A DNA stretch of 64,000 nucleotides from Acidobacteriota bacterium. Its GTDB lineage: Bacteria; Acidobacteriota; Terriglobia; Acidiferrales; UBA7541. The notes beneath the pieces are model-generated. The model was not told the DNA's origin. It ran no database searches and worked only from the letters and a program-made list of their open reading frames with translations. A program made the position numbers and the translations under genes. Below, piece by piece: positions 19,210 to 43,822 of this stretch. How positions within the stretch are numbered: position 1 is the first letter of the stretch; each line of letters starts with the position of its first letter. The stretch lies in NCBI GenBank assembly GCA_003223215.1, contig QHYH01000091.1, positions 60,696-124,695 on the forward strand, given 5' to 3'.

Positions 19210-19424
19210 CAGGTGGGTCGTAAAACCTCGGCGTTTTTAGGCCGAGGATATAAGGCCCCTCTTTGTTTTCCTTCCGAACTGCTCTATATTTCTGTCCGAA
19301 CGACCTATGGGCGGGTCCTCCGCTGAAGTAGGGCGGTTGTGGGAGGAACCCACCGAAGCCATCTCGGGAAAACAAACCGAGAGGCCGTAGGAATCCTCGC
19401 CGCTTGCGGCGGGGAGGATGTCAA
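19210..19424 (+). mobile_element. Non-autonomous IS200/IS605 (IS608-like) mini-element, copy 1
   Basis: Preceded by TTAC; left hairpin CCTCGGCG-TTTTTA-GGCCGAGG; right end GAAT-CCTCGCCGCTTGCGGCGGGGAGG-ATGTCAA; no plausible coding ORF; second copy at 48035-48278. Confidence 0.9.
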
Positions 19425-19441
19425 AGATACAAACAGATCTT

Positions 19442-21061
19442 TCAGTGGTGGGCCGTAGCCGTAGCTGCCGCACCGCTCCAAAACTCGTAGCGGTCGCGGT
19501 GCGCTTGCGGGAGGGCCTGAATTTGTTCCGCAAAATGCATCATCATGGGATCCGCTCCACCGTCATAGACCGGCCATTTCGCCAGGCCCGGCCCGTTCGG
19601 GTCTCCCGCCTTTGTAAAATTCGCCCAATACGAAGCCATGGCATCGGAAATCTTGAAGTCCGCACTCTCCCAGGGGTTCGGCTGTGACTTCAGCGTGCCA
19701 AAGACATATTCAATCTCGCAGGCATGCCGGGCGCCGAGCTCCTTCGGAGAGATTCCATTAACCTTGGTATCCGGCGCGACCGGCGGAGTGCGGTCAAACA
19801 CGTAGCCGTAGACCGGCGCCTGCCCGGTTTTATTCTGCATTTCCAGCCATGCCCACGTGATGTATACGATAAACAGGTCGCTTGCCAGGTCGATCGCCGA
19901 CTTGTGCGCTTCTTCATCGTTGCTGGCGGGATACAGCTTCAGGATCTCCGCCGATCGGTCGTCAAACCGCGCGCGCAGTTGTTGCGGAAAAGTATGCGCG
20001 GTCGGCTTTTCTTTCGCGTAGACCACCGCCCAGCTTGCTTCCTCGGCGTTCCAACCTGCCAGCAGCGGCACGTGGGCCTGCCCGCCTTCCACAAAAATCG
20101 CGGCTACCTCTTTCGGCAGCACATAGCCGTCCACACTTGGCCAGAACTGTAACGAGCGGTCCTTTTGCGCCGCGTTCAGAAGGTCTTCCGCACCCTTCGC
20201 GTGCAGTGCCGCGAGGTCGTTCGCGCCAAGGGCTTCCGCAAATTTCGCGCCGGTCTTTTCCGTTTCGCCGAGCGTCGGCATCGCCGACCCCGCTGGCGGG
20301 CGCCCAAAGAAAGCGCCGCTCTCTCCTATCGCCAGACGAAACAATCCCTTGGCGAGCGGCGAGGCCATCAGGGCGCTGACCGAGAGCGATCCTGCCGACT
20401 CGCCCGCGATGGTCACTTTTTCCGGGTCGCCTCCAAAGGCGGCGATATTTTGCTTCACCCAGCGCAAGCCCGCGATCTGGTCCATCAGACCGTAATTTCC
20501 TGATGCATGGACGCCCGATTCTTTGGTCAACTCCGGGTGAGAAAAAAACCCGAGTACGCCCAGCCGGTAATTGAGGCTGACAACGATGATCCCTTTCTTC
20601 GCGAAATTCTCGCCGTCATAGCGCGGCTCGGAGCTCGATCCGGCCTGAAATCCGCCGCCGTAAAACCACACCATTACCGCGAGGCGGTCCTCGGCCGATT
20701 TTGCCGCCGTCCAGACATTCAGGTACAAGCAATCCTCGCTCATGGGCTTGTCCGCCCGGTCGCGGAAAATCATGTCTGAAAAAACTGGTGCCTGCATGCA
20801 GCGCGGCCCGAATCCACCGGCCTTCAGAACGCCCTTCCAGGGCCTAACGGGTTGCGGCGCCTTCCAGCGCAATTCTCCGATGGGCGGCGCAGCAAAAGGA
20901 ATCCCGCGAAAGGCGCGGACTGCTGGCGAGGCCGCCCTCACGCCCTCCACGATTCCGCTGGTCGTCTTCACCTGGTCATCCGCAAACGTGGCCCCCGCGA
21001 ACGGCATCAGCAGCAATCCAGCCAACGCCGCCATGCGCGCTCGGCCCTTACCTCGCGTCAT
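19442..21061 (-). CDS. Type-B carboxylesterase (pNB esterase-like)
   Basis: FRGIPFAAPPIGELRW, SEDCLYLNVW, YGGGF, GESAG, HACEIEYVFG; signal peptide. Confidence 0.93.
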   Translation of the reverse strand: MTRGKGRARMAALAGLLLMPFAGATFADDQVKTTSGIVEGVRAASPAVRAFRGIPFAAPPIGELRWKAPQPVRPWKGVLKAGGFGPRCMQAPVFSDMIFRDRADKPMSEDCLYLNVWTAAKSAEDRLAVMVWFYGGGFQAGSSSEPRYDGENFAKKGIIVVSLNYRLGVLGFFSHPELTKESGVHASGNYGLMDQIAGLRWVKQNIAAFGGDPEKVTIAGESAGSLSVSALMASPLAKGLFRLAIGESGAFFGRPPAGSAMPTLGETEKTGAKFAEALGANDLAALHAKGAEDLLNAAQKDRSLQFWPSVDGYVLPKEVAAIFVEGGQAHVPLLAGWNAEEASWAVVYAKEKPTAHTFPQQLRARFDDRSAEILKLYPASNDEEAHKSAIDLASDLFIVYITWAWLEMQNKTGQAPVYGYVFDRTPPVAPDTKVNGISPKELGARHACEIEYVFGTLKSQPNPWESADFKISDAMASYWANFTKAGDPNGPGLAKWPVYDGGADPMMMHFAEQIQALPQAHRDRYEFWSGAAATATAHH

Positions 21062-21282
21062 TTCCCCTCCTGGCCTGGTCGCCTATCATAACCGGGATCC
21101 GCCGGTTTTCCCGCTCGATCTTGCGAAGCAGCGGCAAAGGAAGTCGACCCGCGCCACCTACTCCGACGAAGGCGGACAGAAATGTCGCGGGATTTCGATT
21201 GTTGCCTGCGCTTTGATAGGATGGCCCCATACACAAAAGAGGAGACGGAAAGGACGACCTGCCGTCCCGGGCCAAGCCAAAG

Positions 21283-21288
21283 TAGAAT
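21283..21288 (+). promoter_or_regulatory. -10 hexamer TAGAAT, 6 nt before the cofH GTG (possible leaderless transcript)
   Basis: TAGAAT-GAGACC-GTG with no Shine-Dalgarno. Confidence 0.5.
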
Positions 21289-21294
21289 GAGACC

Positions 21295-22548
21295 GTGTTC
21301 CCACGTGTGAGCAACGAAGCGATGACGAAGAGAAGCCTTTCGAGAGCTCTTGCCCAGTGCGCCCCCGGCGCGCGCGATCCTCTTGAGTCGGTTTTGCAAG
21401 GCAAAGAGCTCTCCTTCGAGCAGGGCTTGCGCCTGGCAAAGGTCGAAGGCGCTGACCTCGAAGCTCTGGTAGCCGTCGCGGATTATCTGCGCTCGGAGAC
21501 CGTTGGTGAAACCATCACCTACGTCGTCAATCGCAACATCAACTTCACCAATGTCTGCTTCGTCGGATGCAGTTTTTGCGGCTTTGGCCGCGGACCGCAA
21601 GCCTCCGATGCCTACTCGCTTTCTTTTGAGGAGGTCGTACGCCGCGCCCGCGAAGCCTGGGATCGTGGCGCCACCGAAGTCTGCATTCAAGGCGGCCTGC
21701 CCCGCGACCTCGACGGATTCTTTTATCGCGACCTGTTGCGCGCCATCAAACGGACCCTTCCCGCCATGCACGTCCACGCTTTTTCGCCGATGGAAATCGA
21801 CTATGGTGTGTTGAAGACGGGCTTGCCGCTCGGCGCTTACCTGCAAATGATGAAAGACGAGGGGCTTGGGAGCATTCCCGGCACGGCCGCGGAAATTCTG
21901 GACGACCGCATCCGCCAGCAGCTCAGCCCCAACAAGCTACCGGTCGCTCGCTGGGTCGAAATCATCACCATGGCTCACGAACTCGGCATCCCTACGACTT
22001 CGACGATGATGTACGGCCACGTCGAAGAGCCAGCCGACTGGGTGCGCCATCTTCTGTTGTTACGCTCGATTCAGAAACGTACCGCCGGATTTACCGAGTT
22101 CGTTCCGCTTGGTTTCATCCATCAGAACACCCGCCTCTACAAACATGGCGGAGCACGGCCGGGGGCAGCGCGCGACGAGCACCTGCGCGTTCATGCGCTT
22201 TCTCGTGTCCTTTTGCACGGCGCAATTTGCCATGTTCAAGTCTCCTGGGTAAAGCTGGGAATCGAGACTTCCCTTGCCTGCTTGGAGGCCGGCGCCAACG
22301 ATTTCGGCGGAACGCTGATGGAAGAAAACATCTCCAAAGCTGCCGGAGCCACATTTGGCGAGTACGTTTCACCGGAGGAATTTCGCGCACACATTCGCAA
22401 GATTGGCCGTGTTCCCGCGGAGCGTTCCACAACCTACAAAGTTCGCCGGGCGTTCGAGCGGCGCGAAGAGGATCCGTCATCGGCTTTGCCGGCGCTGCGC
22501 CTAGCGCGGTCCGAAAACCACCCAGGCTACACGAAAGGCGCATACTAG
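21295..22548 (+). CDS. cofH: FO synthase subunit CofH (radical SAM)
   Basis: YVVNRNINFTNVCFVGCSFC, GTAAEILDD, STMMYGHVE, EFVPLGF, QVSWVK, NDFGGTLMEENIS; adjacent to cofC. Confidence 0.88.
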   Translation: MFPRVSNEAMTKRSLSRALAQCAPGARDPLESVLQGKELSFEQGLRLAKVEGADLEALVAVADYLRSETVGETITYVVNRNINFTNVCFVGCSFCGFGRGPQASDAYSLSFEEVVRRAREAWDRGATEVCIQGGLPRDLDGFFYRDLLRAIKRTLPAMHVHAFSPMEIDYGVLKTGLPLGAYLQMMKDEGLGSIPGTAAEILDDRIRQQLSPNKLPVARWVEIITMAHELGIPTTSTMMYGHVEEPADWVRHLLLLRSIQKRTAGFTEFVPLGFIHQNTRLYKHGGARPGAARDEHLRVHALSRVLLHGAICHVQVSWVKLGIETSLACLEAGANDFGGTLMEENISKAAGATFGEYVSPEEFRAHIRKIGRVPAERSTTYKVRRAFERREEDPSSALPALRLARSENHPGYTKGAY

Positions 22549-22556
22549 GCGGCTCC

Positions 22557-23255
22557 ATGCGCGCGCTCCTTTTGCCCGTGAAAGACTTGCGAAACGCGAA
22601 GAAACGTTTGGAAAGCGTGCTCACACCGGAGCAAAGACTGGGACTGGCCCACGCCATGCTTACCGACACGACTCGAGCCGTGCGAGACGTTTGCCGCGCG
22701 GAGAAGATTTTTGTGATCACCAATTATCGGCCGGCCATGGAAATTGCCGAGGAAAACGGCTGGGAGATTCTGCGCGAAGACCGCCAGATTTCCGAAAGCG
22801 ATTCCGTGGATGCCGCGTCCAGAAGGTGTGCACAGCGCGGAGTTCGTTCGCTGCTGCGCCTGCCGCTCGATCTGCCCCTACTCCAGCCGAGCGACATCGA
22901 TGAACTGCTGGCCATCGAATACCCGCCGCCGGCCATGGCTATCGTGCCCTCGCGCGACGGGACCGGCACCAATGCCTTGTTACGCACGCCCCCTACGCTG
23001 TTTCCCTCCCATTTTGGAGCGGGCAGTTTCGCAAAGCATCTAGCGGAGGCTAAACAAGCGAGCGCACAGATTGTCCTTCGCCGCAATTTTCGTCTTGAAA
23101 TGGATGTGGACGACGAATCCGATTTGCACGCCTTGTTGGAATACGATCTCAGCGCGACCGCAACGGGCCGCTGGCTGTGCGAAGCTGGTTTGGATGTGAA
23201 GTTCCGAAGCGGCAGGAAAAGAGAAACCAAGGTTGCTGCCGGAAACCATCTCTAG
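22557..23255 (+). CDS. cofC: 2-phospho-L-lactate/PEP guanylyltransferase
   Basis: LLPVKDLRNAKKRL, DLPLL, PSRDGTGTNALL, FGAGSFAKH, MDVDDESDL. Confidence 0.9.
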   Translation: MRALLLPVKDLRNAKKRLESVLTPEQRLGLAHAMLTDTTRAVRDVCRAEKIFVITNYRPAMEIAEENGWEILREDRQISESDSVDAASRRCAQRGVRSLLRLPLDLPLLQPSDIDELLAIEYPPPAMAIVPSRDGTGTNALLRTPPTLFPSHFGAGSFAKHLAEAKQASAQIVLRRNFRLEMDVDDESDLHALLEYDLSATATGRWLCEAGLDVKFRSGRKRETKVAAGNHL

Positions 23256-23261
23256 AGCGCG

Positions 23262-23939
23262 ATGAAGAAGAAGGTTTATTCCAGGCTTGACGAAGTCGTA
23301 GCCGATGTCCCCGACGGCGCGCGCATTATGTTTGGCGGATTCGGCGGCGCAGGTTTCCCGAACAATCTAATACAGGCCCTGGTGCGCAAAGGCGTCAAAA
23401 ACATCACCGCCATCAGCAATAATTGCGGCACACACGACGGCGAGCTTGGCCTGATGTTCAAGAACAACCAGATCAAGCACGTGATTGCGTCCTTCCCGGG
23501 TCCCCACGCCAGTCATTTTCAGGAGCGCTTCGCCGCCAAGGAGGTAACACTCGAACTGGTGCCGCAAGGGATTCTTTGCGAACGCATGCGCGCCGCGGGC
23601 GCGGGGCTGCAAGGCTTTTACACCACTGTCGGTGTCGGCACAGAAGTCGCCGACGGCAAGGAAGAGCGTGTGCTCGAAGGCAAGCGCTGCATTTTGGAAA
23701 TGCCCATCCGTGCGGACTACGCTTTCATCAAAGCGCAAAAGGCCGATGCGTTGGGCAATTTGACCTATCGGCTCGCGGCGCGGAACTTCAATCCCATCAT
23801 GGCTATGGCCGCGAGAACCACAATTGCCGAAGTCGAAGAACTTGTTCCCGTGGGTTCAATCGAGCCGGAGCATGTGGTGACTCCTGCGATTTTTGTGCAC
23901 CGCATCGTGCAGGCGAAAGGACTCCACTATGCCGGCTGA
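23262..23939 (+). CDS. 3-oxoacid CoA-transferase subunit A (ScoA/PcaI/AtoD family)
   Basis: GGFGGAGFP, ISNNCG, PQGILCERMRAAGAG, ARNFNPIMAMAA. Confidence 0.92.
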   Translation: MKKKVYSRLDEVVADVPDGARIMFGGFGGAGFPNNLIQALVRKGVKNITAISNNCGTHDGELGLMFKNNQIKHVIASFPGPHASHFQERFAAKEVTLELVPQGILCERMRAAGAGLQGFYTTVGVGTEVADGKEERVLEGKRCILEMPIRADYAFIKAQKADALGNLTYRLAARNFNPIMAMAARTTIAEVEELVPVGSIEPEHVVTPAIFVHRIVQAKGLHYAG

Positions 23940-24633
23940 AACCGTTCGGGAAAAAGCTTTGTTGGAGAAACCGCGGCTGACCCGGGAACAAATCGCCGGG
24001 CGCGCCGCGCTCGAATTGCCGGACGGCGCTTACGTCAATCTCGGCTGGGGCATTCCCAACCTCATCGCTAACTATCTCCCCGGGGAAATCACCGTTTACT
24101 TCCACAGCGAAAATGGAATCTTGGGAATGGGGCGCCGCGCGAAGCCAGGCGAGGAAGATTACGACCTCGTGGACGCCATGAAAATCCCGGTGACGCTGAT
24201 TCCCGGCGCTTCCTTTTTCCATCAGGCCGACGCGCACTTGATGACCCGCGGCGGCCATCTCGACGTCGCGGTGCTTGGCGGCTTTCAGGTCTCGGAAAAG
24301 GGCGACCTGGCCAACTGGAAGATTCCAGGCGCAAAAGGCTCCGGCGGCATAGGCGGGGCCATGGACATTTCTGCCGGCGCAAAAAAATTGATTGTTTGCA
24401 TGGAGCATGTCACCAAAGACGGCGCGCCGAAAATTGTCAAGAAGTGTACCTATCCGCTGACCGGTCTCGAATGCGTGGACACCGTCATCACGGATCTCGC
24501 GGTTGTTGACGTCAGCCCCGAGGGCCTGGTCCTGCGCGAAGTTGCACCCGGCTGGCGACCGCAGGATGTGCAGAAACTGACGGGAGCCCCGTTGATGACC
24601 AAAGGACGCGTTCCCGAAATCCGTTTGCCATGA
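23929..24633 (+). CDS. 3-oxoacid CoA-transferase subunit B
   Basis: VNLGWGIP, SENG (catalytic Glu), GDLANW, GIGGAMD, CTYPLTG. Confidence 0.92.
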   Translation: MPAETVREKALLEKPRLTREQIAGRAALELPDGAYVNLGWGIPNLIANYLPGEITVYFHSENGILGMGRRAKPGEEDYDLVDAMKIPVTLIPGASFFHQADAHLMTRGGHLDVAVLGGFQVSEKGDLANWKIPGAKGSGGIGGAMDISAGAKKLIVCMEHVTKDGAPKIVKKCTYPLTGLECVDTVITDLAVVDVSPEGLVLREVAPGWRPQDVQKLTGAPLMTKGRVPEIRLP

Positions 24634-24663
24634 GTTTTGCACGGCCTTTTTTGGGAGGAAGCA

Positions 24664-25062
24664 ATGAGCGCAGTCATTCCAGAAAAATATGCCGACCTTT
24701 TTGAAAAACAGGCTTTCGGCAATCTCAGCACGCTGATGAAGGACGGCAGCCCGCAAGTGACGCCGGTATGGGTGGATTTCGACGGAAAGCACGTTCGCGT
24801 CAATTCCGCCAAGGGCCGCGTCAAGGACAAAAACGTCCGGCGCGATCCCCGCGTGGCCATCGCGCTACAGGATCCCGCGAATCCCTACCGCTACCTCGAA
24901 GTCCGCGGACGCGTCGTGGAAATCACGGAAAAAGGCGCGGACGACCATATCAATAAGCTCTCACAAAAATATCTTGGGAAGCCGGTCTACCCGTTCCGGC
25001 AGCCCGGCGAAGTTCGCGTCATGTACAAAATCGAGCCGCAAAAAATTAGCTCCATGGGCTAG
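24664..25062 (+). CDS. PPOX-class probable F420-dependent oxidoreductase (split barrel)
   Basis: DGSPQVTPVW, KDKNVRRDPRVAI, RYLEVRG. Confidence 0.88.
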   Translation: MSAVIPEKYADLFEKQAFGNLSTLMKDGSPQVTPVWVDFDGKHVRVNSAKGRVKDKNVRRDPRVAIALQDPANPYRYLEVRGRVVEITEKGADDHINKLSQKYLGKPVYPFRQPGEVRVMYKIEPQKISSMG

Positions 25063-26931: not shown

Positions 26932-28835
26932 TCACTTACCGTCAACCGAAAAAGCCAGAAGCACGTTTCCTGGGGCCGCTCCCAAAAAAGCGTATCCCGA
27001 GTTGACAAACAGCGTTCCTCCTACGATGACCGCTCCCGGGCCATCGAGCGCGCCGCCATGCGCCTTCACCCCATTCGCGGTTTTGAAATCCTTGGCGGTG
27101 GCCACATCCCAAAGGATGTGGCCATCCTCGGCGGAGTACGCCCGCAAGTGTCCGTCCAGTCCGCCGGAAAAGACCACGCCGGGAATGGCGGTCACCGCGG
27201 CCGATTGTGCTGGACTGCATCCGGGGCTGTCTCCACAGCCCGGATGCGGTGTCTGCCAGGCAATCTCGCCGGTGTCCAGCTTCAGCGCGAAAAGGCCGCC
27301 GCCAATCTTCGGATCCAATTGCGCCGCGAAGCCCAAGGCCGTATCGCGCGCTCCCGGCGTTCCCGGAGGCACGGGGTTCATGGCTACGTCCGACAGGGCC
27401 ACGTACACGTTCTTTTCGTCCGCTGCGGATCCCCATTGCACCCCGCCAGCCGGTCCGCCGCGGCCGACGCGCCGCTGCCAGAGCACCGCACCCTGCTGGT
27501 CCGGGTCCAAAGCGTAGACCACTCCGGATTTCTGGCCGGCAATCAACGCACGGCGCCCCTTACCCAGTTCCACCAGAATTGCTGAAGAGCCAAAATCAAA
27601 ATCGGGTCCATTCGCCTCGGGGCAGTTCGCGCGCATCTCCGCCGGCGCTCCGCAATTCACGTTGTACGCATCGCCTTTGGTCATTTGCTGCGACCATTTC
27701 AGTTTTCCCGTTTCCAGATCAAACGCGAGAAAAGAGTCCGAGGTCGGCGCCGCGGGGTCCGAATAGCTGTCGCCCGTTGTCACGTAGAGCGTTCGGCTCT
27801 TCAAGTCCGCGGTTGGCGAAGACCACACTCCCGCTCCCGAGGGCCCCCACAGTTGCACACCGACTTTGCTCTTGCGTATGGGCCTGGGTTCTTCCGCAAC
27901 GGTATAGCTTTTCCAGAGAACTTTTCCTGTGGCCGCTGCGAGCGCAGCAATGCTCCCGCGAAATTTGCAGCATTCGTACGTGGGATTCCCGGCAAACACT
28001 TCTTCCATCGAGGAAGTAGGAACATATAGTCTACCTTCGGCCAGCGCAGGGGCTCCGGTAATCACCGCCCCCGGAAATTCTTCGACATGCGTCTTCCACA
28101 GAAGCTTCCCGTCACAGCGTCCACGGCATAAGCGTTCGCGTGCTGGTCGCCGAAGTACGCCGCCCAGCCGCTGCCGTTCTGTCCCAGGCTGACCGCTGTC
28201 CGCACCGGGCCATCCGTGTCAAACGCCCAGTAGATGCAAGCAGTCTCCGCACTGAGCGAATAGACTCTTCGTTCAGAGCTCCCAACAAAGACGCGCCCTC
28301 CCGCCACCGTGGCCTGTGCCTGGGCGCGCAAGACGCCGGGAAAACCGAAGGCCCACTTCAGCTTGAGTTTCGGCACTTGCTCGGCCGTGAGTTGCGCCAT
28401 CTCTGCGGGCTGAAAACGGTGTTGCCCGAGGTCCACGCCCCAGCCGTTCCAGTGCGGCTTCGCGAGCGGATCCGCAAAGGCGCGTTCTCGATCCGCGGCG
28501 CAGAAAGCGGCTGCGGGGATTTGCTCCTTCACCAACTGCCTTCCCGTAAGAAATTCAGCCAGGTCGGCGATTTGCGCCGTTGACAATCCCAGTCCTTCGA
28601 CGGCCATGCTTCCGCCCAGCAAAGCAAGCCGGACGTTCTCCGGCGACATCTGCTGCAGCCGAGCGCGGTTTGGCGCGCGGGGCGCCGCACCTTCGTGGCA
28701 GGCGGCGCAGCGCTGCTTGTAGAGCGCTTCACCGGCCCGGTTTGCTTCCTGCTGCTGGGCTTTGGCTCGACCGCTAACGATGGCCGCAAAAACAATGAGA
28801 AAGCTCAGCCGTGGGACTTTCGGAAAGACTTTCAT
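26932..28835 (-). pseudogene. Cytochrome c plus PQQ beta-propeller dehydrogenase (polyvinyl-alcohol dehydrogenase-like), 1-nt frameshift near 28107
   Basis: CAACH in 28062-28835; adding one A restores DAVTGKLLWKTHVEEFPGAVITGAP, joining ORF 26932-28065 (W-motif repeats, DFDFGS). Confidence 0.85.
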
Positions 28836-42163: not shown

Positions 42164-42502
42164 CTACTTAATGCCGATCAGGTCGATGAGGCGAAGGACT
42201 TCGCTATCCGGGACGTCGTAGAGACGGCGTAGGTCGTCTTCTTCGAGGCGCTCGCGCAAGTACTCGGCGGCCACAAAGCTGGCTTCGCGATCGGTCAGGT
42301 CTCGCTGGGCCTTATCGCGGAATTTAACGAAAGCGGTGTGCGCCAGCCCAACGACATGTGCTTCGCCGTCAACGAAAAACTTTGTGTCGATGGTATCCGC
42401 GTGCCGCGTGGCAATGCCGTTCCACATGTGCGAGAAGCGGCACTGGTAGGTCTGCCCGCTCAGTTTGGAGGTCACTTCGAACGGGCCAATGAACTGGCTC
42501 AT
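42164..42502 (-). CDS. Small hypothetical protein
   Basis: ATG 42502 with GGAG upstream; protein-like composition. Confidence 0.7.
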   Translation of the reverse strand: MSQFIGPFEVTSKLSGQTYQCRFSHMWNGIATRHADTIDTKFFVDGEAHVVGLAHTAFVKFRDKAQRDLTDREASFVAAEYLRERLEEDDLRRLYDVPDSEVLRLIDLIGIK

Positions 42503-42613
42503 CGCTCCGGCATTCGCTAATACGGGCCGTGTGCTCACGCTTTCTCCTTGCAAAGGTTCTCGAGTTCCCGTTGCGAGCTCGCCATCGGAGGAACTCGTCT
42601 AAATTCGCGTGGG

Positions 42614-43822
42614 TTACCGGCTCACCGCCGCTGCCGTTTCTGCATGGGTATAGCTTTCGACGGCCGCGCCGACGCCCGCGCCGCTTGAAACCCGGAACCC
42701 CTGATCGATCAGGCACTTCTCGAGCGCCGCGAGGACCAGCAGCACGTTGGGCTTCTGGCTCGAGTAGCCCATCAGGCCAATGCGCCAGATTTTCCCTTTG
42801 ATCGGCCCGAAGCCTCCGGCGATTTCGATATTGAACTCGTCCAAGAGCTGATTCCGTAGCTTGCCGTCGTCCACGCCGCCCGGAATCATCACGGCTGTGA
42901 CTGTGGGCAAACGGTCTGACGGCTTTTCGACCAGCAGCTTGAGCCCCATCGCTTGCAAACCCGCGATGAGCGCCAGCTGATTCACGCGATGCCGCTCCCA
43001 GCGCGTTTCCAAACCCTCTTCGACGACCAGACGCATCGCTTCGCGCAATGCAAAAATCAGCGAAATGGGAGGAGTGTGGTGATAGAGCCGGTCCTTGCCC
43101 CAATAATTCATCGCCGTGGTCAGGTCGAAATACCAGCTTTGCACTTTGCTTTTGCGTTTGCGAAAAACTTCTTCGGCTGTGGAGCTCACGGTAATGGGCG
43201 ACATTCCCGGAGGCGCGCTGATGGCTTTTTGCGAGCCGCTGAAACAGACATCCACCCGCTCGCGATCCACGTCGAGCGGCACGGCGGCGAGCGACGCCAC
43301 GGTATCCACCACAAGCAGAGCTCCCAGTTCGTCGGCCACTTTTCGAAACCCGTCGATCGTCGTGAGCACACCGGTGGACGTCTCGCCTTGGGCCAGACCT
43401 ATCATCTTGATCTTTTTGCCCTTGCCGGTCCTGCGGATGTCGTCGGGATCCACCGGCTTGCCATTCGGTGCTTCGACTTTGGTCACCCGGGATGAAGCGC
43501 GCATGGCAATCTCGTACATGCGTTCGGAAAACATGCCGTTTACGGCGACGACGGCTTCATCGCCTTCTTCGAGCACGTTGACCACCGACGCCTCGATGCC
43601 ACCCGAGCCGGAAGCCGACAGCGGCATGGTGATGCGGTTTTCCGTCTGAAAAATCTGGCGCAGCAGGATCTGCGTTTCCTCCATGCACCCCTTGAACCAG
43701 GGGTCCATGTGGCCGACTAGGGGCGTCGCGAGGGCGCGGTACACCCGCGGGTCGACCGAAGACGGCCCCGGGGTCAACATCAGCCGTACCGGGGGATTGA
43801 GTTCTCCAATCTGTTGGGTCAT
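42614..43822 (-). CDS. Class V aminotransferase (alanine/serine-glyoxylate aminotransferase)
   Basis: LMLTPGPS, GSGGIEA, ETSTGV, DTVAS, SQKAISAPPG (PLP Lys). Confidence 0.92.
   Translation of the reverse strand: MTQQIGELNPPVRLMLTPGPSSVDPRVYRALATPLVGHMDPWFKGCMEETQILLRQIFQTENRITMPLSASGSGGIEASVVNVLEEGDEAVVAVNGMFSERMYEIAMRASSRVTKVEAPNGKPVDPDDIRRTGKGKKIKMIGLAQGETSTGVLTTIDGFRKVADELGALLVVDTVASLAAVPLDVDRERVDVCFSGSQKAISAPPGMSPITVSSTAEEVFRKRKSKVQSWYFDLTTAMNYWGKDRLYHHTPPISLIFALREAMRLVVEEGLETRWERHRVNQLALIAGLQAMGLKLLVEKPSDRLPTVTAVMIPGGVDDGKLRNQLLDEFNIEIAGGFGPIKGKIWRIGLMGYSSQKPNVLLVLAALEKCLIDQGFRVSSGAGVGAAVESYTHAETAAAVSR

Follow-up and report, generated by a model that had tools for sequence, protein, structure and literature searches.

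Predicted genes for a split Cof-type F420 pathway, dispersed over three loci in a Terriglobia genome

The window analyzed here, a stretch of 64,000 nucleotides from an Acidobacteriota bacterium (assembly GCA_003223215.1, contig QHYH01000091.1, positions 60,696 to 124,695; C37:60696-124695 in the contig numbering used below), carries a run of five genes at positions 21295-25062 that includes cofH, cofC, and a gene for a reductase of the F420-using kind. Together with genes found on two other contigs, these make it very probable that the window is one of three loci encoding a complete, split "Cof"-type pathway for the deazaflavin cofactor F420 in this soil Terriglobia genome. F420 is a low-potential hydride carrier that functions in methanogenesis, antibiotic synthesis, and xenobiotic reduction. 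To our knowledge, its production by bacteria has not been demonstrated outside Actinobacteria, Chloroflexi, and a few Proteobacteria. The original prediction, made from the letters of the window, held that this lineage makes or uses F420, and the complete predicted set of CofG, CofH, CofC, CofD, and CofE supports it. The same prediction took the DNA to come from a probable Acidobacterium, in agreement with the closest CofH homologues and the syntenic loci, which belong to metagenome-assembled genomes (MAGs) of Terriglobia and Acidoferrales.

The F420 genes of the window

The first gene of the run (21295..22548, forward strand; 417 aa from a GTG at 21295, with an alternative ATG at 21322) encodes a radical SAM protein that scores 487.7 bits against the CofH model TIGR03551 (cut-off 374.1) and 445.6 bits against NF005609 (cut-off 426). 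Pfam recognizes Radical_SAM (70.2 bits) and CofH_C (80.8 bits) in this protein, and the CxxxCxxC cluster motif is present as CFVGCSFC. A maximum-likelihood tree (IQ-TREE) was built from the genome's own three paralogues, its own CofG, the paralogues of related genomes, and the CofH and CofG proteins of named loci. Supported groups were obtained for MqnE (100/100), MqnC (95/88), CofG (100/100), and CofH (82/89). The window protein nests in an Acidobacteriota subclade of CofH (98/99), beside the proteins of loci L009-L013 (100/98), and the genome's own MqnE and MqnC each fall in their own clade. Four rows of the tree (L094, L103, L106, and L107) are wrong-frame open reading frames (ORFs) that form a spurious long-branch group; these were disregarded, and the other clades are unaffected. 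Judged by profile and tree, the gene is cofH, and its product would be the radical SAM subunit of the synthase that makes FO (7,8-didemethyl-8-hydroxy-5-deazariboflavin).

Four more genes follow on the same strand. After 8 nt comes cofC (22557..23255, 232 aa), whose product, a guanylyltransferase of the FbiD type, scores 139.9 bits against TIGR03552 (cut-off 105) and also has a Pfam CofC match. Another 6 nt separate it from a gene for subunit A of a 3-oxoacid CoA-transferase (scoA/pcaI family, 23262..23939; TIGR02429, 283.8 bits, cut-off 128.5), which overlaps by 11 nt the gene for subunit B (scoB/pcaJ family, 23929..24633; TIGR02428, 282.2 bits, cut-off 243.55). The last gene (24664..25062, 132 aa) encodes a split beta-barrel protein of the PPOX class, an FDOR-B1-like F420H2-dependent oxidoreductase by profile (TIGR03618, 117.4 bits, cut-off 79.05). 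Its longest ORF opens at a TTG at 24637. However, the 30-nt spacer that follows scoB carries a ribosome-binding site, GGGAGGA, just ahead of the ATG at 24664, and the latter is consequently favored as the probable true start.

Family calls were judged by the curated NCBIfam cut-offs, and all of the F420 calls score higher than theirs. The E-values of these calls in the window range from 1e-34 to 1e-146 in the NCBIfam profile search, which excludes chance matches. The tightly spaced cofH, cofC, and PPOX-class F420-type oxidoreductase of the original prediction are all present, each above its cut-off; the two CoA-transferase genes that stand between cofC and the reductase had gone unmentioned. 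The five genes are taken to form one co-transcribed operon, with a presumed promoter in the intergenic stretch 21062..21294, which on the ORF map lies between a divergent carboxylesterase gene and cofH. A scan with sigma-70 promoter and terminator consensus sequences found no more sites than in shuffled sequence and nothing convincing at 21062..21294, so that the promoter is placed there by conjecture.

Remaining pathway genes and candidate users of F420

The assembly comprises 8.8 Mb in 279 contigs and is estimated to be 97.65% complete with 1.96% contamination. A profile search of its contigs found the rest of the pathway. Contig C163 carries cofG (42342-43517, reverse strand; TIGR03550, 466 bits, cut-off 213) and, tail-to-tail (convergent) with it, fno/npdG, encoding an NADPH-dependent F420 reductase (225.6 bits, cut-off 149.8). 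On contig C215, cofE and cofD are adjacent (301270-303101, reverse strand): CofD (301270-302217) scores 325.7 bits against TIGR01819 (cut-off 257.45), and CofE, a single-domain protein of 271 aa, scores 283.6 bits (cut-off 180.65). A gene for an HpaC-like flavin reductase (300741-301268, reverse strand; Pfam Flavin_Reduct, 134 bits) begins 1 nt after cofD. The genes for CofG, CofH, CofC, CofD, CofE, and Fno are open, their products are near full model length, and all score above the curated equivalog cut-offs. The original prediction had noted correctly that the window is without cofG, cofD, and cofE, whose sole genomic matches are on these other contigs. It had further held that failure to find cofG or cofD in the genome would count against it; the hidden Markov model search found both. 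Its description of the pathway as "split or non-canonical" is borne out in the first term, given the three loci, whereas the second is not needed to account for the gene content. The predicted F420 gene set is complete and of the split "Cof" type.

In the pathway proposed from these assignments, CofH (window) and CofG (C163) would form FO from tyrosine and 5-amino-6-ribitylaminouracil. CofC (window) would use GTP to activate a three-carbon phospho-acid, predicted to be 2-phospho-L-lactate (2-PL) or phosphoenolpyruvate (PEP) rather than 3-phosphoglycerate (3-PG), and CofD (C215) would transfer the activated moiety to FO. The single-domain CofE (C215) would then add gamma-glutamates, and Fno (C163) would load the cofactor with hydride from NADPH. 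The resulting F420H2 would be spent on a substrate by the FDOR-B1-like reductase encoded last in the operon, and probably likewise by an F420-type luciferase-like protein (LLM) encoded elsewhere in the genome.

The solved structure nearest to the window reductase is 3F7E (E 1.8e-21), with Rv1155 more distant (E 4.8e-07). In a review, 3F7E is given as MSMEG_3380, one of the FDOR-B1 enzymes, whose physiological substrates are stated there not to be known even in mycobacteria. By these likenesses, the window protein is FDOR-B1-like and is predicted to use F420H2. A search for FDOR and LLM proteins, which the original prediction had proposed, revealed a very small set of F420 enzymes in the genome, namely a single Fno, a single FDOR (that of the window), and one or two LLMs of the F420 type. 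Six luciferase-like proteins are encoded in all. One is a TIGR03842 F420-dependent LLM (418.7 bits, cut-off 295.45) that probably also uses the cofactor; another is Mer-like, its best matches being F420-type LLM models, all below cut-off; and the remaining ones are FMN-type or unassigned.

Co-occurrence was scored in 38 related genomes (36 of the same class, one of the same order, and one of the same family), 10 of which are CofH-positive and 28 CofH-negative. Orthologues of the window FDOR (58-71% identity) occur in 10/10 CofH-positive and 0/28 CofH-negative genomes. The TIGR03842 LLM (67-70% identity) and the flavin reductase (45-51% identity) each occur in 7/10 of the former and 0/28 of the latter. 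The FDOR gene adjoins cof genes in loci L009, L010, L047, L060, and L064; of the seven genomes that possess the flavin reductase gene, five have it within 4-7 kb of cofH; and ten Terriglobales loci have an orthologue of it next to cofG, on one strand or the other (L015, L018, L020-L022, L025, L027, L031, L033, and L034, at ~1300-2260). On the scale of the phylum, the window-type FDOR is present in 20 of 41 CofH-positive and 6 of 360 CofH-negative genomes. The six latter genomes (G015, G016, G050, G210, G251, and G291) have an FDOR orthologue of 60-66% identity and no CofH that passes its cut-off; these bacteria may obtain FO or F420 by salvage, or their enzyme may work with a different cofactor.

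The CoA-transferase genes behave differently. ScoA, which served as the negative control, has homologues (45-54% identity) in CofH-positive and CofH-negative relatives alike. A second 3-oxoacid CoA-transferase A/B pair, ~48% identical to that of the operon, is encoded on C116 (118642-121077, reverse strand), and in locus L010 the operon lacks scoAB. A functional link of scoAB to F420 was rejected on these three grounds, and because ScoA shows no association with CofH, scoA and scoB are treated as passengers in the operon.

Linker chemistry, dispersal, and paralogy

The product expected of the pathway depends on CofC. The window CofC aligns to PDB entries 7P97, 6BWG/6BWH, and 2I5E. Its K9, D105, S157, and DVD motif align to K17, D116, S166, and D188/D190 of the Mycobacterium tuberculosis protein, and the catalytic and ligand residues are kept in 33-34 of 34 relatives; its partner, CofD, is present in the genome on C215. 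Hasan et al. (PMC8764529) found that Ser162 of Mycetohabitans CofC is diagnostic for acceptance of 3-PG, aided by His145, and that CofC assays are unable to tell the use of 2-PL from that of PEP. In the alignments with 7P97 and 6BWG, G154 of the window protein occupies the column of M. tuberculosis G163 and Mycetohabitans rhizoxinica S162, and T136 occupies that of M. rhizoxinica H145. Because these diagnostic columns hold Gly154, not Ser, and Thr136, the enzyme is predicted to be of the 2-phospholactate/PEP type and the cofactor to be classical F420, not 3PG-F420. The column of Ser162 is Gly in 32/34 related CofC sequences. A homologue from a Terriglobia MAG (L086:8784-9437, reverse strand) has Ser there, as opposed to the Gly of the other 32, and may be an acidobacterial enzyme of the 3PG-F420 type or one that tolerates 3-PG.

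The source of the lactyl linker bears on the alternative that survives best, according to which the cofactor is non-classical, either 3PG-F420 as in Mycetohabitans or a stable dehydro-F420, through the lack of a dehydro-F420-0 reductase. The genome search found neither an FbiE homologue nor one of the FbiB C-terminal domain, the best score against TIGR03553 being 25.6 bits (cut-off 249.55), and none of 401 Acidobacteriota genomes exceeds that cut-off. In addition, among CofC enzymes of solved structure, the one closest in sequence is 7P97, which uses 3-PG (E 7.6e-16), and the assays cited above do not separate 2-PL from PEP. However, the diagnostic residues differ from those of the 3-PG enzyme in the window protein, the Gly is nearly constant among its relatives, and the 3PG-F420 route was rejected on the diagnostic residue. 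Furthermore, dehydro-F420 is described in the literature as less stable, and classical F420 is the reported product of archaea and Proteobacteria that share this gene set. A non-classical cofactor is accordingly held to be unlikely. For archaea, the linker has been ascribed either to 2-phospholactate from a "CofB" source or to PEP followed by a "CofX" reductase that acts on dehydro-F420-0 (PMC6450877, PMC8498797). Since this genome, too, is without an FbiB C-terminal domain or FbiE homologue, the origin of the linker would, by analogy, be in the same state here as in archaea and Proteobacteria.

One could suppose that a split-barrel flavoprotein travelling with the cof genes supplies this reduction, as "CofX," or provides the reduced flavin for it. 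The candidates could be the FDOR-B1-like protein at the end of the operon or the HpaC-like flavin reductase that follows cofD here and stands beside cofG in many Terriglobales. The idea is very doubtful. In a complementarity test, NTR-type reductases would be expected exactly in those CofH-positive genomes that are without the FDOR, and across 401 genomes their presence does not track that group. A consistent, weak match to a stand-alone NTR (50-56 bits) appears only in family f70, which has FbiC-type fusions, and twelve CofH-positive genomes of families f36 and f49 have neither the window-type FDOR nor an NTR match. The test does not support the view that the FDOR stands in for the dehydro-F420-0 reductase. 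The flavin reductase, for its part, is missing from 3/10 CofH-positive genomes of the same class.

A second question is raised by the dispersal of the genes. In a search of 185,579 species genomes, the nearest CofH proteins (66-78% identity) came without exception from MAGs of Acidobacteriota, namely of Terriglobia and Ca. Acidoferrales/Acidiferrales. Locus L009 (CofH 77% identical) has the order cofH-cofC-scoA-scoB-FDOR followed by two further genes, as in the window, and L010 has cofH-cofC-FDOR. In L012 and L013, by comparison, a single block reads fno-cofE-cofG-cofH-cofD-cofC-scoA-scoB, and about 20 Terriglobales loci have cofG-cofD-cofC-cofE-cofH-fno. Because L012 and L013, whose CofH is 66-68% identical to that of the window, keep a contiguous cluster, the scattering seen here is judged to be secondary and the separation of cofH-cofC from cofG to be derived. 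This separation is common to L009-L011, which indicates that it is old and not an artefact of assembly. Two observations on the loci compared may be added. L009 (DATHIB010000148.1) is labelled Candidatus Limnocylindria (Chloroflexota), yet seven of its genes are syntenic with those of the window, their proteins being 58-88% identical, and its CofH falls within the Acidobacteriota sequences; an error of labelling or binning is probable. Four Methylomirabilota/Rokubacteria loci have an ORF of ~170-194 aa between cofH and cofD (L049:7580-8164, L054:7676-8182, L063:7570-8154, and L077:7588-8160, all forward strand), and the two copies scanned, those of L049 and L054, have no Pfam match.

The three contigs probably come from one organism, because their GC contents are nearly identical (0.585, 0.590, and 0.589), a mini-transposon of the window (19210-19424) recurs on C163 as a 99%-identical partial copy, the genome's own CofG is sister to that of L012 (100/99 in the IQ-TREE tree), and CofD and CofE resemble their counterparts in L012/L013 (58-63% identity) as closely as CofH does (66-68%). 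The mini-transposon is a gene-less element of the IS605 type with 31 blastn matches on 24 contigs; its 111-nt copy on the cofG/fno contig (C163:24873-24983) adjoins the gene for the Mer-like luciferase-like oxidoreductase. It could nevertheless be argued that the pathway as a whole is non-functional, its genes being scattered remnants of a broken cluster, or that the cofG and cofD-cofE contigs belong to another organism in the bin, in which case the window operon would serve at most in salvage or be silent. The cluster that is contiguous in L012/L013 does occupy three loci here, the assembly is fragmented with some estimated contamination, and a reference genome of the same family has no CofH. 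Nevertheless, the six genes are all open and full-length against their models, and the separation of cofH-cofC from cofG, being common to L009-L011 (74-78% identity), appears old and maintained. CofG, CofD, and CofE together resemble their L012/L013 counterparts (58-69% identity) much as CofH does, the GC contents agree, and C163 has the genome's mini-transposon. A broken or foreign pathway is thus considered quite improbable, somewhat more so than a non-classical cofactor.

The weakest alternative, that 21295-22548 encodes MqnC or MqnE of the futalosine pathway to menaquinone and that the operon is unconnected with deazaflavin synthesis, has in its favor the close paralogy of CofH, MqnC, and MqnE (against the models for the latter two, the window protein reaches 347.7 and 308.3 bits, respectively) and the fact that most Acidobacteriota genomes have such paralogues only, at ~330-350 bits on the CofH model, but it is effectively refuted: both Mqn scores are under their curated cut-offs (428.1 and 434.55) while the CofH score is over its own; the genome has a separate, bona fide MqnE (C232:14360-15517, 517 bits) and MqnC (C279:49968-51002, 462 bits); the tree places the protein in the CofH clade; and cofC is next after the gene, which relatives hold within complete cof clusters. 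The original prediction had staked itself on this phylogenetic distinction, and the window protein groups with CofH.

Several points do weigh against a complete and working pathway. The assignment of C215 to the same organism depends solely on its GC content and on the consistent similarity of CofD and CofE to those of L012/L013, the genome is a draft in 279 contigs, and the function of intact-looking genes is assumed. With no FbiB-C-terminal or FbiE homologue, a PEP route would miss a reductase and a 2-phospholactate route a source. The link between FDOR and CofH is imperfect across the phylum, given that fewer than half of the CofH-positive genomes (20/41) have the FDOR and six CofH-negative ones do. 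Finally, CofH is missing from the same-family and same-order reference genomes. It is above cut-off in 10 of the 36 same-class genomes listed and in 41 of the 401 Acidobacteriota species genomes sampled (~10%), so that the trait is widespread but patchy in the phylum. The two reference genomes without cofH measure 3.7 Mb (same family) and 2.7 Mb (same order), compared with 8.8 Mb for the present assembly, which is either an unusually large genome for the lineage or a composite bin.

Flanking genes, known systems, and significance

The genes on both sides of the operon are unrelated to F420. The divergent carboxylesterase gene (19442-21061, reverse strand; Pfam COesterase match) stands upstream, and downstream are a convergent gene for a secreted protein and a gene for a metallo-beta-lactamase-fold protein. 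Farther along, a PQQ-dependent dehydrogenase with an N-terminal cytochrome c domain (26932-28835, reverse strand) is represented by two abutting ORFs, one (28835..28062) matching cytochrome c and positions 1-137 of the PQQ profile and the other (28065..26932) matching positions 187-299 and beyond; it resembles a frameshifted or broken gene.

F420 biosynthesis genes have been reported in multiple Acidobacteria genomes (Grinter & Greening 2021, PMC8498797), and the figures of that review show FDOR and Fno genes adjoining cof genes in predicted producers. The same review states that there is no experimental work on the role of F420 outside Actinobacteria, and no report of F420 chemistry in Acidobacteriota was found in the literature. 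As they are presented there, the predicted clusters from Acidobacteria and other soil bacteria described by Ney et al. (2017) are known from genomes only and, like the present set, comprise cofG, cofH, cofC, cofD, and cofE with fno and an FDOR gene nearby; they form one cluster, however, whereas here there are three loci and two added CoA-transferase genes.

The archaeal and proteobacterial Cof pathway (Methanocaldococcus jannaschii, Paracoccus denitrificans, and Oligotropha carboxidovorans) shares with this one the separate CofG and CofH, the Gly of CofC, and a single-domain CofE that is without a nitroreductase domain. It differs in phylum and gene order, and the proteobacterial loci L043 and L079 are without an FDOR. 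The mycobacterial Fbi system (FbiC, FbiD, FbiA, and FbiB), with the stand-alone FbiE of Thermomicrobium, has homologous steps of FO synthesis, guanylylation, transfer, and glutamylation, and its FDOR-B1 users of F420H2 include the nearest solved relative of the window reductase, MSMEG_3380 (3F7E). In contrast to that system, this genome has neither an FbiC fusion nor a two-domain FbiB nor an FbiE homologue, and its repertoire of F420 enzymes is very small. The 3PG-F420 pathway of M. rhizoxinica and Mycetohabitans sp. B3 likewise has a Gram-negative host and a single-domain CofE, needs no reductase, and provides the best PDB sequence match to CofC (7P97), but the residues equivalent to its Ser162 and His145 are Gly and Thr here.

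Taken together, these results add a clean case, from the genome, for the predicted ability of a phylum abundant in soil to make F420. Because such gene sets have already been reported for Acidobacteriota, the finding is correct but ordinary; its value is confirmatory, with candidates for biochemistry, and it leaves current understanding unchanged. The organism also joins the archaea and Proteobacteria as a case that bears on the source of the lactyl linker. Terriglobia that bear the pathway keep a very small conserved set of F420 enzymes, namely Fno and one FDOR-B1, often joined by a TIGR03842 LLM and a flavin-reductase-like protein, and this set narrows the search for the role of F420 in these bacteria.

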